Made by a program: the position numbers and the translations under genes. This document shows positions 7,814 to 54,611 of a stretch of 64,000 nucleotides of DNA, piece by piece; the stretch's first letter is position 1; every line of letters starts with the position of its first letter. The stretch covers positions 1 to 64,000 of IMG/VR virus record IMGVR_UViG_2595698619_000001; one strand, 5' to 3'. Under the pieces are notes generated by a model, which saw only the letters and a list, made by a program, of their open reading frames with translations, ran no database searches and was not told the origin of the DNA. The DNA is from a virus (lineage: Duplodnaviria > Caudoviricetes).

Positions 7814-10792
7814 ATGCCACAGGAAGAACTTGCAGTCGAGGACGTTGTGCTACCTCCCAAACGACAAGACGAACCGACGCTCGAGGCGCGGATGAGCGAG
7901 AACGCCTACAACAGAATCCTCCCATCTCGGTACCAGCGACGGGACGCTGACGGTGAACTGGTCGAGGAGCAGGAGGAGGTTTTCGAGCGGGTAGCGAAGA
8001 ACATCGCTCTCGGCGACGTACCGCACATGGAGGGGATTATCGAGGTGGGTCCCAGCGAGTATCGTCCGGAGTTCCTGGACGAGTTCCCCGACGGTGAGAC
8101 GCAGGTCGAGGTGACAGAGGACAACGCGCGGTATCTCGACTACGATAGCGTCTCCGAGGTTCTCGCACCCGAGGCCCGGCGCGACCTCGAATCTACGAAG
8201 GACGAGTTCCAGGACCTGATGGAGCATCTCTCGTTCATGCCGAACACCCCGACACTCATCAACGCTGGCGACGAACTCCAGCAACTGTCGGCGTGCTTCG
8301 TAGATTCGCCCGCTGACGACATGGACGACATCCACGACACTGCCCGCGAAGCAGCGAAGATTTTCCAGTCGGGAGGTGGCATGGGGTACGCCTTCTGGAA
8401 ACTGCGTCCCTACGGGGATAAGGTCGGTTCGACGGGCGGCATCGCTTCTGGTCCTATCACGTTCATGCGCACCTACGACCAGATGTGTAAGACCATCGCT
8501 CAGGGTGGTACGCGACGGGGTGCGCAGATGGGAGTGATGAAGGTCTCCCACCCGGACGCCATCGAGTTCATCCACGCGAAGAACAAGGACGTGTCCCTCG
8601 CGGTGGCACTGGGTCTGAACGACCCGAAGGACCCGACCAACAACTCCTTCCGTGAGGCGCTCGACGAAGCGCGAGACCTCATCGAGGACGGGAAGGTTCC
8701 CAAGCACCTGCGGAACGCCGTCGAACGTCACCTCTCGAACTTCAACATCTCGGTCGGCGTCACCGAGGACTTCATGGAGGCCCTGGAGCAGAAGGAAGAA
8801 TTCACGTTCACCAACCCGCGCACAGACGAACCGCATATCGCCACTCAGGAAACGAAGGAACTGTGGTCGCGGTACGACCTCGGACACCACGTCAGCGTCG
8901 GAGAACCGCTGTCTGTCCCTGCGGAAGAAGTATGGGAGCGTATTATCGAGGGCGCCTACGAAAACGGAGAGCCCGGCGTTATCTTCCTCGACCGCGTCAA
9001 CGAGGAGCACTCGTTCGACGTAGAGAAGCATCCCGACCACGAGATTCTCGCCACCAACCCGTGCGGTGAGCAGCCTCTGGAGGAGTACGAGGCCTGTAAC
9101 CTCGGGCATATCAACCTCTCGACGCTCGCAGCGAAGGACGCGCCTGACTGGCGTGAGTACGATGGTGACGTGGACGCCTTCCTGAGTGACGCCATCGACT
9201 GGGAAGAGTTCGACCGACGTATCTACGAAGGCACGCACTTCCTGGACAACGTCGTCACCATGTCGAACTTCCCGATTCCGGAAATCGAGGAGAAGGTCAC
9301 GTCCATGCGCAAAATCGGACTCGGTATCATGGGGTACGCGCAACTCCTCATCCAGCTCGGTATCCCGTATGGGTCGGACCTCGGGAACGACGTGGCGCGG
9401 CGTCTCATGCAGTACATCAATCACGAGAGCAAGGCGGAATCTCACCACCTGGCGCAGGAGCGAGGTGCGTTCGACGAGTGGGACAAGTCGAAGTACGCGA
9501 ACCCGACGGAGTACCCGTCCTGGTTCGAGGAGCACACCGGAGAGAACTCGTTCGACTGGGAAGACGGATTCCCGGTACGGAACCACAACACTACGACCAT
9601 CGCTCCCACTGGAACGACCAGCATGATTGGGAACACTTCGGGCGGTTGCGAACCGCTACACAACGTCGCGTTCCTCAAGAATGTCAGTCAAGACATCCAA
9701 GGCGAGGACGAGCTCGTGGAGTTCGACGACTACTTCCTGCGCGTTCTCGAAGCGAACGAGATAGATGTCCAGGCTGTCAAACGCCAGGCGGCGCGTCAAA
9801 TGCAGGACCCGTCGCTTGAGTTTAAGGGTACTGATTCTCTCGACGAAGTGCCTGATAGCATCGGGTCACTATTCGTTACTACTGGTCAGCTTAGCGGTCG
9901 TGAGCATGCGTCGGTTCAGTGCGCTTTCCAGGAAGGCGTGGACAGCGCTATCTCCAAGACGGTGAACTTCCCCTCGACGGCGACACGCGGCGACGTGCGC
10001 GAGGTGTACGAGTACATCTACGAGCATGGTGGAAAGGGCGTCACCGTGTACGTTGATGGCTCGCGTCAGAAGTCGGTCATCTCCACGTCCTCGAACTCTG
10101 CCGATGAAGAGGACACGGGCACCGAGGAACCGCAGAGCACGCAAGAGACGACGCAGACGACGAAGCAGGTTGCCGACGACTTCCTCAACGACGAGTACGG
10201 TGTCAGCGTCGAGTGGCTCGATGCCGTAATGAACGACGAGGAGGTTCCGACGACGGGCACGCCGCGCCCGCGCGAACGCCCCAAAGTCCTCGACTCGACT
10301 GTGTACCCGGTCAGTACGGGATACGGCGAGCTCAACGTCTTCGTCAACGAGGACAACGCAGGCGAACCGTTCGAGGTCTTCGCGGAAATCGGGAAGTCGG
10401 GTGGATTCACTCACTCCTTCACCGAGGCCATCGGACGCCTCACGTCGCTCGCTCTCCGTAGCGGGATTCCCGTGGATGAGGTGGTCGACCAACTCGACGG
10501 CATCCGGTCACCGAAGACGGGATGGCACAACGGCGGGCACCAGATTCAGTCGATTCCTGACGCGGTCGCGTATGCGCTCGAACAGCATACTGAGGAACCC
10601 GAATCCGAACCCGCGAACCCCACACCTGACACCACCCAACTCCCCGTCCAGAATGGGAATCAGCAGGAGTCAGAGGGTGGCGCTCTCGCGCATGGCGAGA
10701 ACCCGGAGTGTACGGAGTGTGGGGCGATGGCGCTGACGTACAGTGAAGGATGCAAAACTTGTTCTGCCTGTGGGTGGTCAGAATGCGGGTGA
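7814..10792 (+). CDS. nrdJ: Class II (adenosylcobalamin-dependent) ribonucleotide reductase
   Basis: PNTPTL, LSACFV, TNPCGEQPL, TIAPTGT, SAISKT; C-terminal TSCPD-like domain and Zn ribbon; no intein. Confidence 0.96.
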   Translation: MPQEELAVEDVVLPPKRQDEPTLEARMSENAYNRILPSRYQRRDADGELVEEQEEVFERVAKNIALGDVPHMEGIIEVGPSEYRPEFLDEFPDGETQVEVTEDNARYLDYDSVSEVLAPEARRDLESTKDEFQDLMEHLSFMPNTPTLINAGDELQQLSACFVDSPADDMDDIHDTAREAAKIFQSGGGMGYAFWKLRPYGDKVGSTGGIASGPITFMRTYDQMCKTIAQGGTRRGAQMGVMKVSHPDAIEFIHAKNKDVSLAVALGLNDPKDPTNNSFREALDEARDLIEDGKVPKHLRNAVERHLSNFNISVGVTEDFMEALEQKEEFTFTNPRTDEPHIATQETKELWSRYDLGHHVSVGEPLSVPAEEVWERIIEGAYENGEPGVIFLDRVNEEHSFDVEKHPDHEILATNPCGEQPLEEYEACNLGHINLSTLAAKDAPDWREYDGDVDAFLSDAIDWEEFDRRIYEGTHFLDNVVTMSNFPIPEIEEKVTSMRKIGLGIMGYAQLLIQLGIPYGSDLGNDVARRLMQYINHESKAESHHLAQERGAFDEWDKSKYANPTEYPSWFEEHTGENSFDWEDGFPVRNHNTTTIAPTGTTSMIGNTSGGCEPLHNVAFLKNVSQDIQGEDELVEFDDYFLRVLEANEIDVQAVKRQAARQMQDPSLEFKGTDSLDEVPDSIGSLFVTTGQLSGREHASVQCAFQEGVDSAISKTVNFPSTATRGDVREVYEYIYEHGGKGVTVYVDGSRQKSVISTSSNSADEEDTGTEEPQSTQETTQTTKQVADDFLNDEYGVSVEWLDAVMNDEEVPTTGTPRPRERPKVLDSTVYPVSTGYGELNVFVNEDNAGEPFEVFAEIGKSGGFTHSFTEAIGRLTSLALRSGIPVDEVVDQLDGIRSPKTGWHNGGHQIQSIPDAVAYALEQHTEEPESEPANPTPDTTQLPVQNGNQQESEGGALAHGENPECTECGAMALTYSEGCKTCSACGWSECG

Positions 10793-12274: not shown

Positions 12275-12302
12275 CACTTTCACTTCGCTACGTACTTTTA
12301 TG
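12275..12302 (+). promoter_or_regulatory. CACTTTCAC-class promoter
   Basis: CACTTTCACT-N11-TTTTATG. Confidence 0.7.
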
Positions 12303-12342: not shown

Positions 12343-13494
12343 ATGGCGACGAACGCAGACGACAACGGCGATGGCAACGAGCGGATGAACAGCAACGTGG
12401 AAGTCAACGCGGTGCCGCTGGACGCAGTCAGCGACGCTGACGAGGACGCGGAGGTTCTCGGGTTCGCGGTCATGTCGACCACGGGCGAGGTCGTCGTTCC
12501 TCGTGACTGGTTGCAGGCGCAGTGGGAGGAGTACAACCTGCCCGAAGAAATCATGCCCAGCGAGACGTGGAATTCGAGTGCGTACAAGCGCGCCATGTTC
12601 CACCTCCTCGACCAGGGCAACGATGAGCAGTACGTCAAGACGTCCGCGGGCACGCAGAAGGTCACGCTCGACACCAAGGACGGCAGCGGGAATCAGAAGC
12701 ACGTTCTCGCCAACGTCTGGTTCGACGACGACCACCCGAACGCGGAGCAGTTGGACATCGAGGCAGGCGGCGAGTGGCGGCAGACGACGCTCGGTGTCAC
12801 CAACTACGACGCCGAGGAGCAGGACGTGCGTATCACTCAGCGGATTGACGACGAGCACCCCCTGTCCGATGTCTGGCAGAACCTGGTCGCTCGTATCCGT
12901 GAGCTGTTCGAGACGCACAAGGTCTCGCACAACGGTGACGATATGCGAGACGTCCTGTACGACTTCACGCGCTACTACAGTGACAGCATCCCGCTGCGCG
13001 ACGGCGGCGCGGTGTACTTCATCCCCGCGAACGAGAAGGACACCATCGAGGCGCTCGCAGAAATCTGGGACAAGATGGACGACGAGTTCAAGCTGCGCGG
13101 GCGCGAGACGGAGATTCAGACGATTCCCGTCGTCTCCGACACGGAGCGCAAGGAGCTGGTCGAGAAGCGCGCCGCCAAGGTCGTGCGCGACGAGATTGAC
13201 CGCGTCCTGGAGGACGCCTTCGACGACCTCGAGGACCCGGACAACGACACGCCCGAGGACGAGATAGTCGGGACCATCGAGGACGCGCTCGGTGACCACT
13301 CGCAGACGGCAGACGTCTACAACGCCCTGGTCGACGCTCGGATTGACATCCGCGAAGTCCTCAAGGAGTTCGCGCAGGACGTTTCCGAGGAAGCGCGCCA
13401 GGACCTCATCGAGGACACCCTGGAGCGCCTCGACGCCGACGAAGTCGCAACCGACGGCGGTCAGGAACGCGACGAGAACGGGCAGTTCAAGTAG
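12343..13494 (+). CDS. Conserved hypothetical protein (DUF6744/DUF3150-like)
   Basis: 383 aa; LRDGGAVYFIP motif recalls these families; family assignment tentative. Confidence 0.6.
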   Translation: MATNADDNGDGNERMNSNVEVNAVPLDAVSDADEDAEVLGFAVMSTTGEVVVPRDWLQAQWEEYNLPEEIMPSETWNSSAYKRAMFHLLDQGNDEQYVKTSAGTQKVTLDTKDGSGNQKHVLANVWFDDDHPNAEQLDIEAGGEWRQTTLGVTNYDAEEQDVRITQRIDDEHPLSDVWQNLVARIRELFETHKVSHNGDDMRDVLYDFTRYYSDSIPLRDGGAVYFIPANEKDTIEALAEIWDKMDDEFKLRGRETEIQTIPVVSDTERKELVEKRAAKVVRDEIDRVLEDAFDDLEDPDNDTPEDEIVGTIEDALGDHSQTADVYNALVDARIDIREVLKEFAQDVSEEARQDLIEDTLERLDADEVATDGGQERDENGQFK

Positions 13495-13511
13495 ACCCGT
13501 TCTCACTCGCT

Positions 13512-13600
13512 CCTCGTCGCAGGACCCAGGACAACGTGTCCAAACCTGCCTGATGACCGCGCGAGCGGCGTAGGCCCGCAGGGGTGCGGGCGAAACGAGG
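13512..13600 (+). ncRNA. Type III hammerhead ribozyme with an extra core helix
   Basis: CCTCG-TC / GCAGG..CCTGC / CTGATGA / CCGC-GCGA-GCGG / GCCCGCA-GGGG-TGCGGGC / GAAA-CGAGG; predicted cleavage after C13518. Confidence 0.85.
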
Positions 13601-13637
13601 TGTCCAACCGATGAAGGAAAACACCGAGGTGTGACTC

Positions 13638-14957
13638 ATGGGCAGCGGCATGGGCGCACCAGATGACGAGATGAACCGCCGGGCGGAGTTGCAGCAGCGC
13701 CGCCTGGAACAGATGTCTACGGACGTGCCTGCGGTCGGTGGGAGCAGCCCCGACGCCAACGGTGAGGTTTCCACCGCAGGTTCCGCCGAGGACATGCTCG
13801 CACAGTACGCAGAAACGAACGAGGAAACTACGATGACCAAGGAAAAACAGAAACTCAAGTCGCCGCGGTACAGTGACGTTCCAGCATACAGTCTCGAAGC
13901 GCTCGACACCGATACTCTCAAGGACGAGGTGTTCCCTGCGCTCGACTTCAGCGAGGCAGAACGTCAAGCGGCAGGTGCGCTCGTGGAGTACGCGGAGGCC
14001 GATATGTCCCAGGCAGACATCGCCGAGAAGGCGGGTGTGTCAGGGACGACCGTCAGTCGGACGAAGCGTTCGCTCACTACGTCGCGTAATCCGTCGAAGG
14101 ACAAGCGCGAGATTCTTCGGTATGCTCGTGAGAACCCAGACGCTTCGGTCAGTGAGATAGCGGATTACGGGGACACCGCGTCCTCGAACGTGAAAGCGAT
14201 GCTCCGCGAGTTCCGCCACGCACGTATCGTCTGCGAGGTCGAGGTTCCCGAAGAAACCGACGAGGACGAGAGCACGGGCGGAGAGACGACGGAGACGCAG
14301 GAGCAGGATGACTCGGACGGCGACGACACGGACGACGAGAGCGACGAGTCTGACGCGGTACAGAAGGACCTCGAAGGCGACGATGAGGTGACCTACAAGT
14401 ACGACCCGAAGGACAAGACGAAGAAGCAGACGCGCGGAGGGCAGTCGCTGAAGAAGGTGCGCGACCAGTCGCACCTCATCTCGCTGTTCCGCGAGCTCGA
14501 CCGCCGCGTGCGGGAGCTCGAGGATAGTGGTGTCGAGGTTGACGTGTCCGAGCCGGTGAAAGGACGCCTCACGTCCCTGGAGAACCAGGTCGAAGGCGTG
14601 CAGTCGGTCGTTGACCGTATCGAGAATCAGCAGTCGAACCTCGAGCGGTTCGTCGAGAACGAGATGGACACGTCGTCTGACCTGGACGGCATCGAGCAGG
14701 ACGTGGAGGACCTCAAGGAACAGTTGCAGAACATCACCGACACCATGGACCTCGAGTGGAGCGATACGAAACTCGGGCAGCGGGTCGACCGTATCGAGGA
14801 GTCGCTGTCCTCGCACAAGCAGGCCATCGAGGACCTGCGCGAGGGAGATACGGGCAGTAGCACTGATTTCTCGACGGAGGAGAAGCGGAAGGTTATCGTC
14901 GCCCTCGCTGAGAACGGGCAAGATGACCTCATCGACCGGGTGTTAGACGAGTTCTAG
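13638..14957 (+). CDS. Tandem-HTH plus coiled-coil protein (putative regulator)
   Basis: MSQADIAEKAGVSGTTVSR HTH, second HTH, acidic linker, long heptad region; start uncertain. Confidence 0.7.
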   Translation: MGSGMGAPDDEMNRRAELQQRRLEQMSTDVPAVGGSSPDANGEVSTAGSAEDMLAQYAETNEETTMTKEKQKLKSPRYSDVPAYSLEALDTDTLKDEVFPALDFSEAERQAAGALVEYAEADMSQADIAEKAGVSGTTVSRTKRSLTTSRNPSKDKREILRYARENPDASVSEIADYGDTASSNVKAMLREFRHARIVCEVEVPEETDEDESTGGETTETQEQDDSDGDDTDDESDESDAVQKDLEGDDEVTYKYDPKDKTKKQTRGGQSLKKVRDQSHLISLFRELDRRVRELEDSGVEVDVSEPVKGRLTSLENQVEGVQSVVDRIENQQSNLERFVENEMDTSSDLDGIEQDVEDLKEQLQNITDTMDLEWSDTKLGQRVDRIEESLSSHKQAIEDLREGDTGSSTDFSTEEKRKVIVALAENGQDDLIDRVLDEF

Positions 14958-22393: not shown

Positions 22394-23850
22394 TCTTCTG
22401 CCTTGAGGTTGTGAACCGGCGTCAGCGTTTCCTCAACCGATGCTGTCTCCTCGATACGTTCGAGGATAACGTCCCGCGACTTGTACGCCATCGGCGCCTC
22501 GTCAATCGTATCCCCGGTGACTGAGGTCGAGAAGATGCCGTCCATCTCCTGCGAAAACTCAGCGAGGTCGAACTGACGGAACGCCCAACGACGTGAACCG
22601 CGTCGTCCGGCACCGTGAGGGGCGCTACGATTCCACTCGTCGTTCCCCTCACCGCGGACGATAATCGCACCGTCCCGCATATTGAACGGGATAACGCCTC
22701 GCTCTCCCTGATGTACGCGGGTCGCACCCTTTCGGATGGTCAGGTCGTCGAAGTCGATGTAGTTGTGAGTCGAGACGATGAGGTCCTCCGGGTCCCACTG
22801 ACGAACACCGAGGACGTGCGCGACGGAATCGACCATCTGGAGACGCGACTCGGCAGCGTAGGTCTGCGCGAATATCATGTCTCGCAGGTAGCCGTGACGG
22901 TCCTCTCCTTCGAGGAAGTCGAGGTCGTCTCCGCCCGCGTTCTCACGCAAGTAGGACGAGACATCCTTCATCTCGTTGATGAGGCGACCGATTTCTTCGC
23001 CCTCGTAGTTGAGTCGAACCCATGACGTGTCCTTCCAGTCCTCGCCCATGCCGCCCTGCACCCAGTTGAGGAGTTCTCGGTCGGACACGTCCTGCACGTC
23101 GAACTTGTACGCGCCGTCCGGGAGGCCCGAGAGCATGTCGCGCACCGTGTCTGCTCTGTCGTCCTGCGCCTGGTGCGCCTGCTCCTGCCAGTACTCCGCG
23201 ACGCTGAGCCCGATGCCACGCGACCCAGAGTGAACGACCACCCAGTAGTCGCCTGTCTCGTCCGAACGGGAAATCTCGACGAAGTGATTGCCACCACCGA
23301 GCGTGCCGATGCTGTTGATGGCTCGGTTCACGTCGTATCCCACGCGCTCGCACAGGTCGAGGAAGTACTCCTTACCGTAGTCAGGCGACTCGATGGGTTC
23401 GCCGTTCCAGTTGTCGTTCAGCGACTGGAGTTTCTGCTCGCACGCCTCCCACGGGAAGTCGTTGACGATATGATACTGCTGCTCGATATGAGTGTCCGCG
23501 AACGTGTTCCGACCCATCGGAACGTGCGCACGGATTGACTCATCGAGGTCGCGCATGAGCCCATCGTCACCGAGACGAATCTCGAGCTCGTCAGGACGCC
23601 CGAGGCGAAGCGCGGTCATCCCGCAACCGATGTCCACGCCCACGGTGTTCGGGCAGATACGTTCACCGAGTTCCATCGTAAACCCGATGACCGCGCCCGC
23701 ACCAGCGTGAGCGTCGGGCATGATTCTGACCGGGTTCTGGAACGCCTCGTGGTTGACCAGTTCCTGCACCTGCTCGATACACGTCTCGTCCACCTCGTCG
23801 GTGAAGATTCGCGCGTCGGTGTGCCGTCCGTTGATGTTTATCTCACTCAT
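22390..23850 (-). CDS. rtcB: RNA 2',3'-cyclic phosphate/5'-OH ligase RtcB
   Basis: MPDAH, VDIGCG, GGGNHF, HSGSR, HNY, HGAGR, DEAPMAYK. Confidence 0.95.
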   Translation of the reverse strand: MSEININGRHTDARIFTDEVDETCIEQVQELVNHEAFQNPVRIMPDAHAGAGAVIGFTMELGERICPNTVGVDIGCGMTALRLGRPDELEIRLGDDGLMRDLDESIRAHVPMGRNTFADTHIEQQYHIVNDFPWEACEQKLQSLNDNWNGEPIESPDYGKEYFLDLCERVGYDVNRAINSIGTLGGGNHFVEISRSDETGDYWVVVHSGSRGIGLSVAEYWQEQAHQAQDDRADTVRDMLSGLPDGAYKFDVQDVSDRELLNWVQGGMGEDWKDTSWVRLNYEGEEIGRLINEMKDVSSYLRENAGGDDLDFLEGEDRHGYLRDMIFAQTYAAESRLQMVDSVAHVLGVRQWDPEDLIVSTHNYIDFDDLTIRKGATRVHQGERGVIPFNMRDGAIIVRGEGNDEWNRSAPHGAGRRGSRRWAFRQFDLAEFSQEMDGIFSTSVTGDTIDEAPMAYKSRDVILERIEETASVEETLTPVHNLKAEE

Positions 23851-53753: not shown

Positions 53754-54611
53754 TCAGTTCTTGTTGACCGGACCGATAACGTTCCGGAGCACCTGACCTT
53801 CGTACTCGTCCTGCACCACGCAGATGGGGTTGCCGTCGTCCGTCTCGATACGGACATCCCCCGACACCGTGCCGAAGAGTTCCTCGAACCCCTGGTTGTA
53901 CTCGTTCGACAGGTCGGGACCTTCGACGCTATCCGCGTTGAGCGCACCCCACGCGGCATTCCGTCGCTCGTCCTTCCCGACACTCAGGTACAGGTCACCG
54001 TCCTGGATGGTAATCGGGTAGAACTTCGTATCGTCGTCGTCGTTGACGATGTCTACGATACGCTGAACCTCGCGCACGCCCGTCTCGATGGTCGCCTCCA
54101 TCGGTTCGCCGTCACCGGTGAGGAAGGAGTGCGTCTCGTCGTCGAACCGACCCACAGCGTCGAGCGGGACCTCATCGAGGTTCGACTCGCTCGCGGGCAG
54201 CATGACGCGCGTCTGAATCGCTCCGTGGAACTGGAGCGCGTGACAGAGGCGGTCGTCCTCCTCACCGAGGAGCGTCAGTTCGACCGTACTGCTCGGGTCG
54301 TCCTGCGCGTAGTTGAGATACGTGAGGAAGTCCTCGACGTTGATAATCGCCTCCGCTGTCCCGTTGTTGTCCTCCACGAGGAGGTCTTGGTCGACCTCGA
54401 CCGAGTCGAGGAATCCCGCACCGAAGGTGGAGTACGAGATGACGCTGTTGTTCTGCTTGGAGGCGAGGAACCGCGCCTCACCGCCGCCCACGTTGACGTA
54501 CACCTCCGAGTGCACAGCGTCGCCGGAAGACGCCTTGAGCGACGCCTTCTTAATCATCTGTTCGAGTCGGTTCGCCTTCGCCGTGATAGTTGCCTTGGTG
54601 ACTTCAGTCAT
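53754..54611 (-). CDS. Divergent PCNA-like sliding clamp
   Basis: 285 aa, two similar alpha/beta halves, ends VIGP; context of two RFC subunits and PolB. Confidence 0.65.
   Translation of the reverse strand: MTEVTKATITAKANRLEQMIKKASLKASSGDAVHSEVYVNVGGGEARFLASKQNNSVISYSTFGAGFLDSVEVDQDLLVEDNNGTAEAIINVEDFLTYLNYAQDDPSSTVELTLLGEEDDRLCHALQFHGAIQTRVMLPASESNLDEVPLDAVGRFDDETHSFLTGDGEPMEATIETGVREVQRIVDIVNDDDDTKFYPITIQDGDLYLSVGKDERRNAAWGALNADSVEGPDLSNEYNQGFEELFGTVSGDVRIETDDGNPICVVQDEYEGQVLRNVIGPVNKN

Follow-up and report, generated by a model that had tools for sequence, protein, structure and literature searches.

Can a hammerhead ribozyme hold a folded insertion inside its catalytic junction and still cleave the transcript that carries it? 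The question is raised by positions 13512-13600 of the 64,000-nucleotide (nt) stretch of tailed-virus DNA analysed here (IMG/VR record IMGVR_UViG_2595698619_000001, positions 1 to 64,000; hereafter the window), where a hammerhead-like element lies on the plus strand between a gene for a DUF6744 family protein and a gene for a winged helix-turn-helix (HTH) protein. Our analysis places the element in a true hammerhead lineage with high confidence and, as judged from sequence comparison, it is a genuine and conserved hammerhead that had escaped annotation, now in a second haloarchaeal virus family. We consider it probable that this is a type III hammerhead of the Druskaviridae whose insertion-bearing form is active and splits the transcript between the two genes. 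The comparison covered five copies, four of them distinct: the window copy, HVTV-1 copies a and b, and the copies in HCTV-16 and HCTV-1.

The stems, core, GTC triplet and hairpins listed in an initial annotation of this DNA were all found base for base on the plus strand when checked against the sequence, and the core, GUC site and three stems stand in type III order, as that annotation had stated. The elements are:

13512-13517 (+): stem III, 5′ strand CCUCGU, pairing with ACGAGG at 13595-13600; U13517 is U16.1
13516-13518 (+): GUC cleavage triplet
13518 (+): C17, with the predicted self-cleavage bond at 13518/13519
13519-13549 (+): stem I region, enclosing the internal loop ACCCA / AAA
13519-13523 and 13545-13549 (+): stem I, GCAGG / CCUGC
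13524-13527 (+): ACCC in the stem I internal loop
13529-13541 (+): inner hairpin of loop I, GGACA-ACG-UGUCC
13550-13556 (+): core strand C3 U4 G5 A6 U7 G8 A9, CUGAUGA (CUGAYGA in 5/5 copies)
13557-13568 (+): inserted hairpin CCGC-GCGA-GCGG, 4 bp with a GNRA loop
13569-13573 (+): insertion linker CGUAG, 5 nt, complementary to C3, U4, A6, U7 and G8
13574-13591 (+): stem II, GCCCGCA-GGGG-UGCGGGC; G13574 is G10.1 and C13591 is C11.1
13592-13594 (+): core G12 A13 A14, invariant in 5/5 copies
13595-13600 (+): stem III, 3′ strand ACGAGG, invariant in 5/5 copies; A13595 is A15.1

C3 adjoins stem I directly in the window copy, and C13591 (C11.1) directly abuts G13592 (G12). The A13595-U13517 pair (A15.1-U16.1) and the non-G residue C17 are present and the same in 5/5 copies, as is G-C at 10.1-11.1. 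The extra GNRA hairpin and 5-nt linker that had been noted between the core and stem II were likewise found, at 13557-13573, where these 17 nt (12-nt hairpin plus 5-nt linker) separate A9 from the G10.1-C11.1 pair. In the consensus junction A9 meets G10.1 directly or across at most 1 nt; since the spacing is 17 nt in the window copy, as it is in HVTV-1 copy b, we filed the element as a hammerhead variant and not as an ordinary member.

We read the second of the two hairpins after A9 as stem II, and the first hairpin with its linker as inserted into the A9-G10.1 junction, because the second hairpin adjoins G12, opens with a G-C pair in all copies and is homologous to stem II of HCTV-16. This homology is seen in HVTV-1 copy b (GACCCG..CGGGUC) compared with HCTV-16 (GACCGG..CCGGUC), with a loop containing UCGGG. 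The opposite assignment, with the first hairpin as stem II and the second inserted before G12, is less likely, as it needs a C-G pair at 10.1-11.1 in the window copy and breaks the stem II homology.

One explanation that has to be weighed is a chance resemblance within G+C-rich intergenic DNA, with neither ribozyme ancestry nor function. Short core strings alone are not rare: the bare CTGATGA..GAAA combination matched twice in the window, and at least two matches occurred in 18 of 100 shuffled sequences, so this combination alone is not significant. The fold energy of the element is also unremarkable (see below), though the ViennaRNA minimum-energy fold recovers all of the helices listed above. 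A relaxed descriptor (core, H17, U16.1-A15.1, a stem III with 5 bp or more, stems I and II with 4 bp or more each, and at most 20 nt from A9 to stem II) was far more selective, matching both strands of the 64-kb window only at 13512-13600 and matching just 2 of 200 dinucleotide-shuffled windows, once each. The site was also the top match of an independent covariance model (R1), which was built on an alignment (A7) of five hammerheads from unrelated, apparently bacterial-virus IMG/VR contigs, with halovirus sequences excluded; searched with filters off, the window gave 13511-13601 at 25 bits (rough E of 2e-5). The runner-up at 54331-54412 (16.2 bits) was rejected as a ribozyme: it consists of an inverted repeat resembling stem III, UCCUCGA..UCGAGGA, with CACGAGGA and GAGU replacing CUGAUGA and GAAA. 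Together with syntenic hammerheads with covarying stems in three other genomes, these results leave chance resemblance with almost no credibility.

The relatives in question are HVTV-1, HVTV-2, HCTV-1 and HCTV-16, tailed viruses of Haloarcula in the Druskaviridae, to which the region is 87% (HVTV-1 and HVTV-2) or about 74% (HCTV-1 and HCTV-16) identical. Hammerheads occupy the same intergenic position in HVTV-1 (two copies, scoring 29.0 and 27.9 bits with R1), HCTV-16 (32.1 bits) and HCTV-1 (24.8 bits); beyond the locus sites, the only R1 match at E≤1 in the four genomes scored 13.5 bits (E 0.13) and lay in the window's own genome. The initial annotation had made its proposal depend on retention of the core in close relatives, and the core was intact in 5/5 copies. 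The core strands, C17, A15.1-U16.1 and G10.1-C11.1 were invariant except at position 7 (U or C), a position that is free in the hammerhead consensus. Covariation in related haloviruses, also suggested as a check, was evident as compensatory double changes at four pairs in each of stems I and II. Pairs were counted from parsed coordinates and not from MAFFT alignments, of which A1, A4, A5 and A6 set the core or the additional nucleotide in the wrong place and were left out of structure counts:

Stem I, pairs 1-5: 25/25 cells standard; double changes at four pairs (pairs 2-5)
Stem II, pairs 1-6: 30/30 standard; double changes at four pairs (2, 4, 5 and 6)
Stem III, pairs 1-6: 30/30 standard (5/5 copies); changes one-sided only, with the 3′ strand ACGAGG invariant

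The copies differ in the spacer between A9 and G10.1, which is 17 nt in the window and HVTV-1 copy b, a single U in HCTV-1 and HCTV-16 (both compact type III hammerheads), and absent in HVTV-1 copy a. The last (KC117377.1, 10984-11046) is fully canonical and lies directly upstream of gene 26, while copy b (KC117377.1, 11662-11744) lies downstream of gene 26 and upstream of the HTH gene. Gene 26 is an extra 196-codon gene that is absent from the window, HCTV-1 and HCTV-16, and no homologues of it were found outside HVTV-1 and HVTV-2; copy a and gene 26 together look like a unit, a gene headed by a ribozyme, that was inserted in front of the resident ribozyme. A separate observation concerns stem I: the inner hairpin of the window copy, GGACA..UGUCC (13529-13541), has the sequence of the whole of stem I in HVTV-1 copy b (GGACAC..GUGUCC), and the window copy seems to have gained the basal helix GCAGG/CCUGC, shifting CCC from a terminal to an internal loop.

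The comparison of the two insertion-bearing copies carries most of the argument for activity. In HVTV-1 copy b the insertion reads GCGC-GUGA-GCGC followed by the linker CAUCG, the window equivalent being CCGC-GCGA-GCGG followed by CGUAG. Both are 17 nt long and share the same site and architecture, with a GCGA or GUGA loop and one flipped pair in the hairpin, and we therefore assign them a single origin. Every stem difference between the two copies is a compensating double change (three in stem I, three in stem II and one in the inserted hairpin), with all pairs preserved and the core unchanged. Given a single origin and only compensated stem changes, the fold has thus been retained from the insertion event onwards. 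We read the insertion form as putatively still catalytic, the main argument being the compensated stems and intact core.

Smaller insertions at this site have precedents. In the account of PMC3705267, the plus-strand hammerhead of chrysanthemum chlorotic mottle viroid (CChMVd) carries an extra A between A9 and G10.1 at the cost of a moderate rate loss, and a U at this position raises the rate 3-4-fold; Penelope-like-element hammerheads, as described in PMC4209133, conserve a nucleotide here. One U after A9 also occurs in four IMG/VR phage hammerheads (L026, L075, L078 and L102). These single-nucleotide precedents indicate that the A9/G10.1 site tolerates one extruded nucleotide. The extra U of HCTV-1 and HCTV-16 is an exact match to the variation described for the CChMVd and Penelope-like hammerheads, which resemble the window copy in insertion site and have kept their activity, but which differ in holding one nucleotide where the window holds a 12-nt hairpin and a 5-nt linker. 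In our view the hairpin module at A9/G10.1 makes the element a structurally novel form of an established class of ribozyme.

A number of results weigh against an active insertion form that splits the transcript. The literature searched, which did not extend to the supplementary variant lists of PMC3088659, contained no natural case of a folded module or a 17-nt insert beside A9, and an insertion of this size might disrupt stacking at the A9/G12 platform. The minimum-energy fold of each insertion-bearing copy has all 5 linker nucleotides base-paired to the core, which lengthens the inserted hairpin to 9 bp, and it lies below the core-free fold by 2.4 kcal/mol in the window and 5.6 kcal/mol in HVTV-1 copy b; with linker-core pairing favoured in prediction, the ribozyme may be slow or inactive. 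The fold energy of the element is unexceptional (z -1.74, with 12 of 200 shuffles folding equally well); the minus strand folds no better than shuffles (z -0.75). The comparative case consists of four distinct sequences from one virus family, with few independent covariation events, and no further relatives beyond these copies were found among the matches listed from IMG/VR, metagenome contigs and GTDB genomes. Co-transcription of the flanking genes and release of a Shine-Dalgarno sequence, both discussed below, are steps that we infer. Finally, the check with Infernal and Rfam hammerhead models that had been suggested for this site turned out negative, the window copy being unmatched at gathering, at E≤10 and at E≤1, and none of the five copies reached the gathering score of Hammerhead_3 (RF00008), which is 48.5 bits.

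With this model HVTV-1 copy a scored 35.7 bits and the insertion-bearing copy b 22.1 bits, both below 48.5, and there was no match for the window, HCTV-1 or HCTV-16 copies; cmscan of the whole window against Rfam at gathering gave no matches at all. Scores below threshold have therefore left these copies unannotated, and no RNA is annotated at the locus in the HVTV-1, HVTV-2, HCTV-1 or HCTV-16 records. The type II model (RF02276) found nothing at the locus, with weak sub-cut-off matches only elsewhere in the relatives' genomes. Weak Rfam matches within 13400-13720 at E≤10 (KDPG-aldolase, 16.6 bits; radC, 13.5; RAGATH-10, 13.5; Yar_3, 11.0) were taken as chance, and a match of the sR28 C/D-box model over the HCTV-16 copy (20.4 bits, cut-off 39) stems from the UGAUGA string and was rejected.

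Searches for further relatives took several routes. The HTH protein had no relatives in IMG/VR, and alignment of the DUF6744 protein gave none among metagenome contigs and only HCTV-1 in IMG/VR. A hammerhead DNA pattern matched at least 119 IMG/VR stretches, and among the matches listed there were about 10 ordinary phage hammerheads and no new halovirus ones; a locus-specific pattern matched six IMG/VR stretches, one of which was HCTV-1, and an insertion-module pattern matched none. A long-stem-II pattern gave at least 116 matches in at least 114 stretches of metagenome contigs, where in seven of the matches listed both stems reached 3 bp or more, none of the seven being halovirus-like. The pattern search of GTDB genomes gave 111 matches in 106 stretches, of which three had 3 bp or more in both stems but were not convincing; a match in a Natronomonas metagenome-assembled genome was without stem I.

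Public sequencing runs were also considered (24 listed, 20 containing part of the stretch), and Logan contigs of four DNA metagenome runs were compared over 13200-13900. Contigs covering the ribozyme had no listed difference at 13462-13666 and so added no covariation. The contig from run X4 is a mosaic whose divergence starts only at 13667, and identity across the ribozyme is thus no sign of selection. In a diverged contig of run X1 (record 2, 1808 letters), 13488-13628 (a 139-nt stretch) is replaced by 101 unalignable letters, which may come from a relative whose ribozyme is compact or missing.

If the insertion killed catalysis, what remains would be a structured leader masking ACGAGG, or neutral sequence. 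The interrupted A9-to-G10.1 junction and the failure of Rfam to recognise the window copy point this way, as does the saltern hammerhead HHmeta, which according to PMC3088659 is nearly inactive in standard conditions with a mere 2-nt core insertion. HHmeta, however, returns to useful rates at high Mg2+, as in extreme halophiles (PMC3088659). Moreover, both insertion-bearing copies retain every core nucleotide, 6 of the 11 pairs in stems I and II differ between them with every difference compensated, and a hairpin that merely masked a Shine-Dalgarno sequence would need only stem III. Loss of catalysis thus strikes us as improbable.

The predicted linker-core pairing raises a different interpretation, in which the hammerhead is self-inhibited or switchable: the inserted hairpin and linker would form a 9-bp OFF helix with C3-G8, and because this helix would form before stem II during transcription, cleavage would be delayed or dependent on a trigger that opens the helix, for example a protein bound to the GNRA hairpin, the salt or Mg2+ level, temperature or a ribosome. 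Full linker-core pairing occurs in both copies although their linkers differ (CGUAG and CAUCG), both linker differences preserve it, and among all 1024 possible linkers only 5.3% (window) and 4.4% (HVTV-1 copy b) pair fully with the core. Perreault et al. also raise regulated, salt-dependent cleavage for phage and saltern hammerheads (PMC3088659). Against this, the linkers are homologous, and 5-6 of the 16 variants of their shared C-N-U-N-G frame pair fully, so that the second copy adds little. HVTV-1 copy a, which is free of the insertion, has a non-catalytic fold 6.1 kcal/mol below its core-free fold; since it too misfolds in prediction, such predicted alternatives are evidently common. The complementarity could equally be a relic of the insertion's origin as an inverted copy of neighbouring sequence, and the comparison involves two sequences only. 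We regard a switch of this kind, including early formation of the OFF helix, as rather unlikely.

More broadly, the GNRA-capped module between A9 and G10.1 could be a working part of a four-helix hammerhead, either as a salt clamp or as an OFF switch, a suggestion that we make only tentatively. As a clamp, its GYGA loop would dock on the GGACA/UGUCC helix, which is kept in stem I of both insertion-bearing copies, forming a tertiary contact suited to multimolar salt; as a switch, the linker would hide the core until a viral or host signal freed it.

The initial annotation had also proposed a pseudoknot between loops I and II. The sequences permit it: in each of the four distinct copies, 4-5 contiguous bases of loop II are complementary to loop I or to the internal loop of stem I (CUCGC/GUGAG in HVTV-1 copy a, CCC/GGG in the others). 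This complementarity is nonetheless no better than that of shuffled loops in any of the four, since 22-58% of shuffled loops reached the observed pairing (2894 of 5000 for the ACCC/GGGU pairing). A loop I-loop II contact is plausible, and it fits the description by Perreault et al. of many hammerheads (PMC3088659).

What the element might do depends on the genes around it:

12343-13494 (+): upstream gene for a DUF6744 family protein (Pfam DUF6744, 69.2 bits)
13611-13634 (+): mini-open reading frame (mini-ORF) of 7 codons, MKENTEV then stop, of the same length in the four copies that precede the HTH gene
13638-14957 (+): downstream winged-HTH gene (Pfam HTH_24, 32.7 bits), its C-terminal half coiled-coil-like

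The DUF6744 protein is 79-96% identical to its homologues in HVTV-1, HCTV-16 and HCTV-1, and the HCTV-16 homologue of the HTH gene is annotated as an HTH domain-containing protein. The DUF6744 stop codon (TAG, 13492-13494) lies 17 nt upstream of the ribozyme, which occupies most of the 143-nt gap between this stop and the HTH start codon (ATG, 13638). No AT-rich TATA-like box was seen in the intergenic region (13495-13637), and the HTH gene is thus most simply co-transcribed with the DUF6744 gene. The promoter of the upstream gene had been placed at 12275; the sole TATA-like hexamer seen upstream of that gene is instead TTTTAT at 12296-12301, about 42 nt before the ATG and with GGAGGT between, making this the more likely promoter site.

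The mini-ORF has counterparts in HVTV-1 (MKDATEV), HCTV-16 (MKPKTEV) and HCTV-1 (MKAKTEV), each ending in a stop. Its last codons make GAGGTG, which is the HTH gene's Shine-Dalgarno sequence, and 3-5 nt separate its TGA from the HTH start that follows, an arrangement that looks like translational coupling. The stem III strand ACGAGG is itself Shine-Dalgarno-like, with a start codon 6-10 nt downstream in 5/5 copies (10 nt in the window). The ATG concerned is the start of gene 26 for HVTV-1 copy a and the start of the mini-ORF for the other four copies. Among the listed IMG/VR matches, a start codon lies 7-9 nt past ACGAGG or ACGAAGG in 6 of 9 well-formed hammerheads (L018, L026, L041, L049, L092 and L102), a count that leaves out two hammerheads found solely by a pattern requiring ATGAAG. 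Phages may use stem III more generally to mask a Shine-Dalgarno sequence.

On the sequence and its context, the element most likely serves to let a polycistronic transcript cleave itself immediately ahead of the HTH gene. The DUF6744 and HTH genes would be transcribed together as one polycistronic RNA, which would fold and cleave itself after C13518. The upstream mRNA would then end in a 2′,3′-cyclic phosphate, and the downstream mRNA would begin with a 5′-OH at G13519, retaining the body of the ribozyme as its leader. The split and the 5′-OH mRNA had been proposed in the initial annotation, and we find both proposals reasonable. Cleavage would leave stem III as a 6-bp two-piece duplex able to fall apart, and the freed ACGAGG, 10 nt before the mini-ORF, could become accessible to ribosomes.

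The window also carries a gene for an RtcB-family RNA ligase at 22402-23772 on the minus strand (Pfam PF01139, 108.6 and 83 bits); RtcB is present in HCTV-16 and HCTV-1 as well and is annotated in HF2, with no match found in HVTV-1. RtcB joins 2′,3′-cyclic phosphate to 5′-OH ends, the end chemistry of hammerhead products.

The intergenic type III hammerheads of phages (RF00008; described in PMC3088659) share the core, GUC site, stem order and open stem III of the window copy, and the six IMG/VR examples named above resemble it further in lying upstream of a start codon with ACGAGG(AG) as the 3′ strand of stem III. The window copy differs from them in its 17-nt insert, two-tier stem I, sub-threshold Rfam score and archaeal-virus host.

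The closest published analogue is the hammerhead of HF1/HF2, which is located 13 nt before a helicase gene and has a mapped 5′ end at most 3 nt from its cleavage site (PMC3088659). In the description given there, this hammerhead (HHphage) likewise occurs in a haloarchaeal tailed virus, just upstream of a gene in a polycistronic region, and both it and HHmeta carry unusual inserted nucleotides within or next to the catalytic core. The differences are of class and context: HHphage is of type II, annotated in HF2 with stem II open (AF222060.2, feature 10292-10359), has a 2-nt insertion by C3/stem I, and precedes a helicase gene in the Hafunaviridae, whereas the window copy is of type III, has a 17-nt hairpin module after A9 and precedes an HTH gene in the Druskaviridae. 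RNA processing or salt-dependent control has been proposed for the HF1/HF2 and saltern hammerheads, and the saltern-derived ones tolerate core insertions at high Mg2+ (PMC3088659). Among the papers listed in our literature search, none joined a hammerhead with HVTV-1, HCTV-1, HCTV-5 or the Druskaviridae.

Hammerheads are the best-studied small ribozymes, and the three-way junction at their centre is regarded as almost invariable. The natural A9/G10.1 insertions described in the literature found are single nucleotides; an active four-helix form, if true, would mean that this junction can hold a whole structural module, and ribozyme engineers would gain another place at which to attach sensor domains. 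Should the module prove to be a working part, the element would found an architectural subclass of its own among hammerheads. Variants of this sort escape standard homology searches, Rfam at gathering having detected none of the five copies. For haloarchaeal viruses, our findings would carry the theme of leaders processed by ribozymes beyond the HF1/HF2 group, into a second tailed-virus family, and the extra gene of HVTV-1, with its own hammerhead at the same spot, suggests a modular layout of ribozyme plus gene. The proposal ties RNA cleavage to the exposure of a Shine-Dalgarno-like sequence and, if true, the Druskaviridae would possess a natural ribozyme-gated leader that controls a regulator gene of an archaeal virus.

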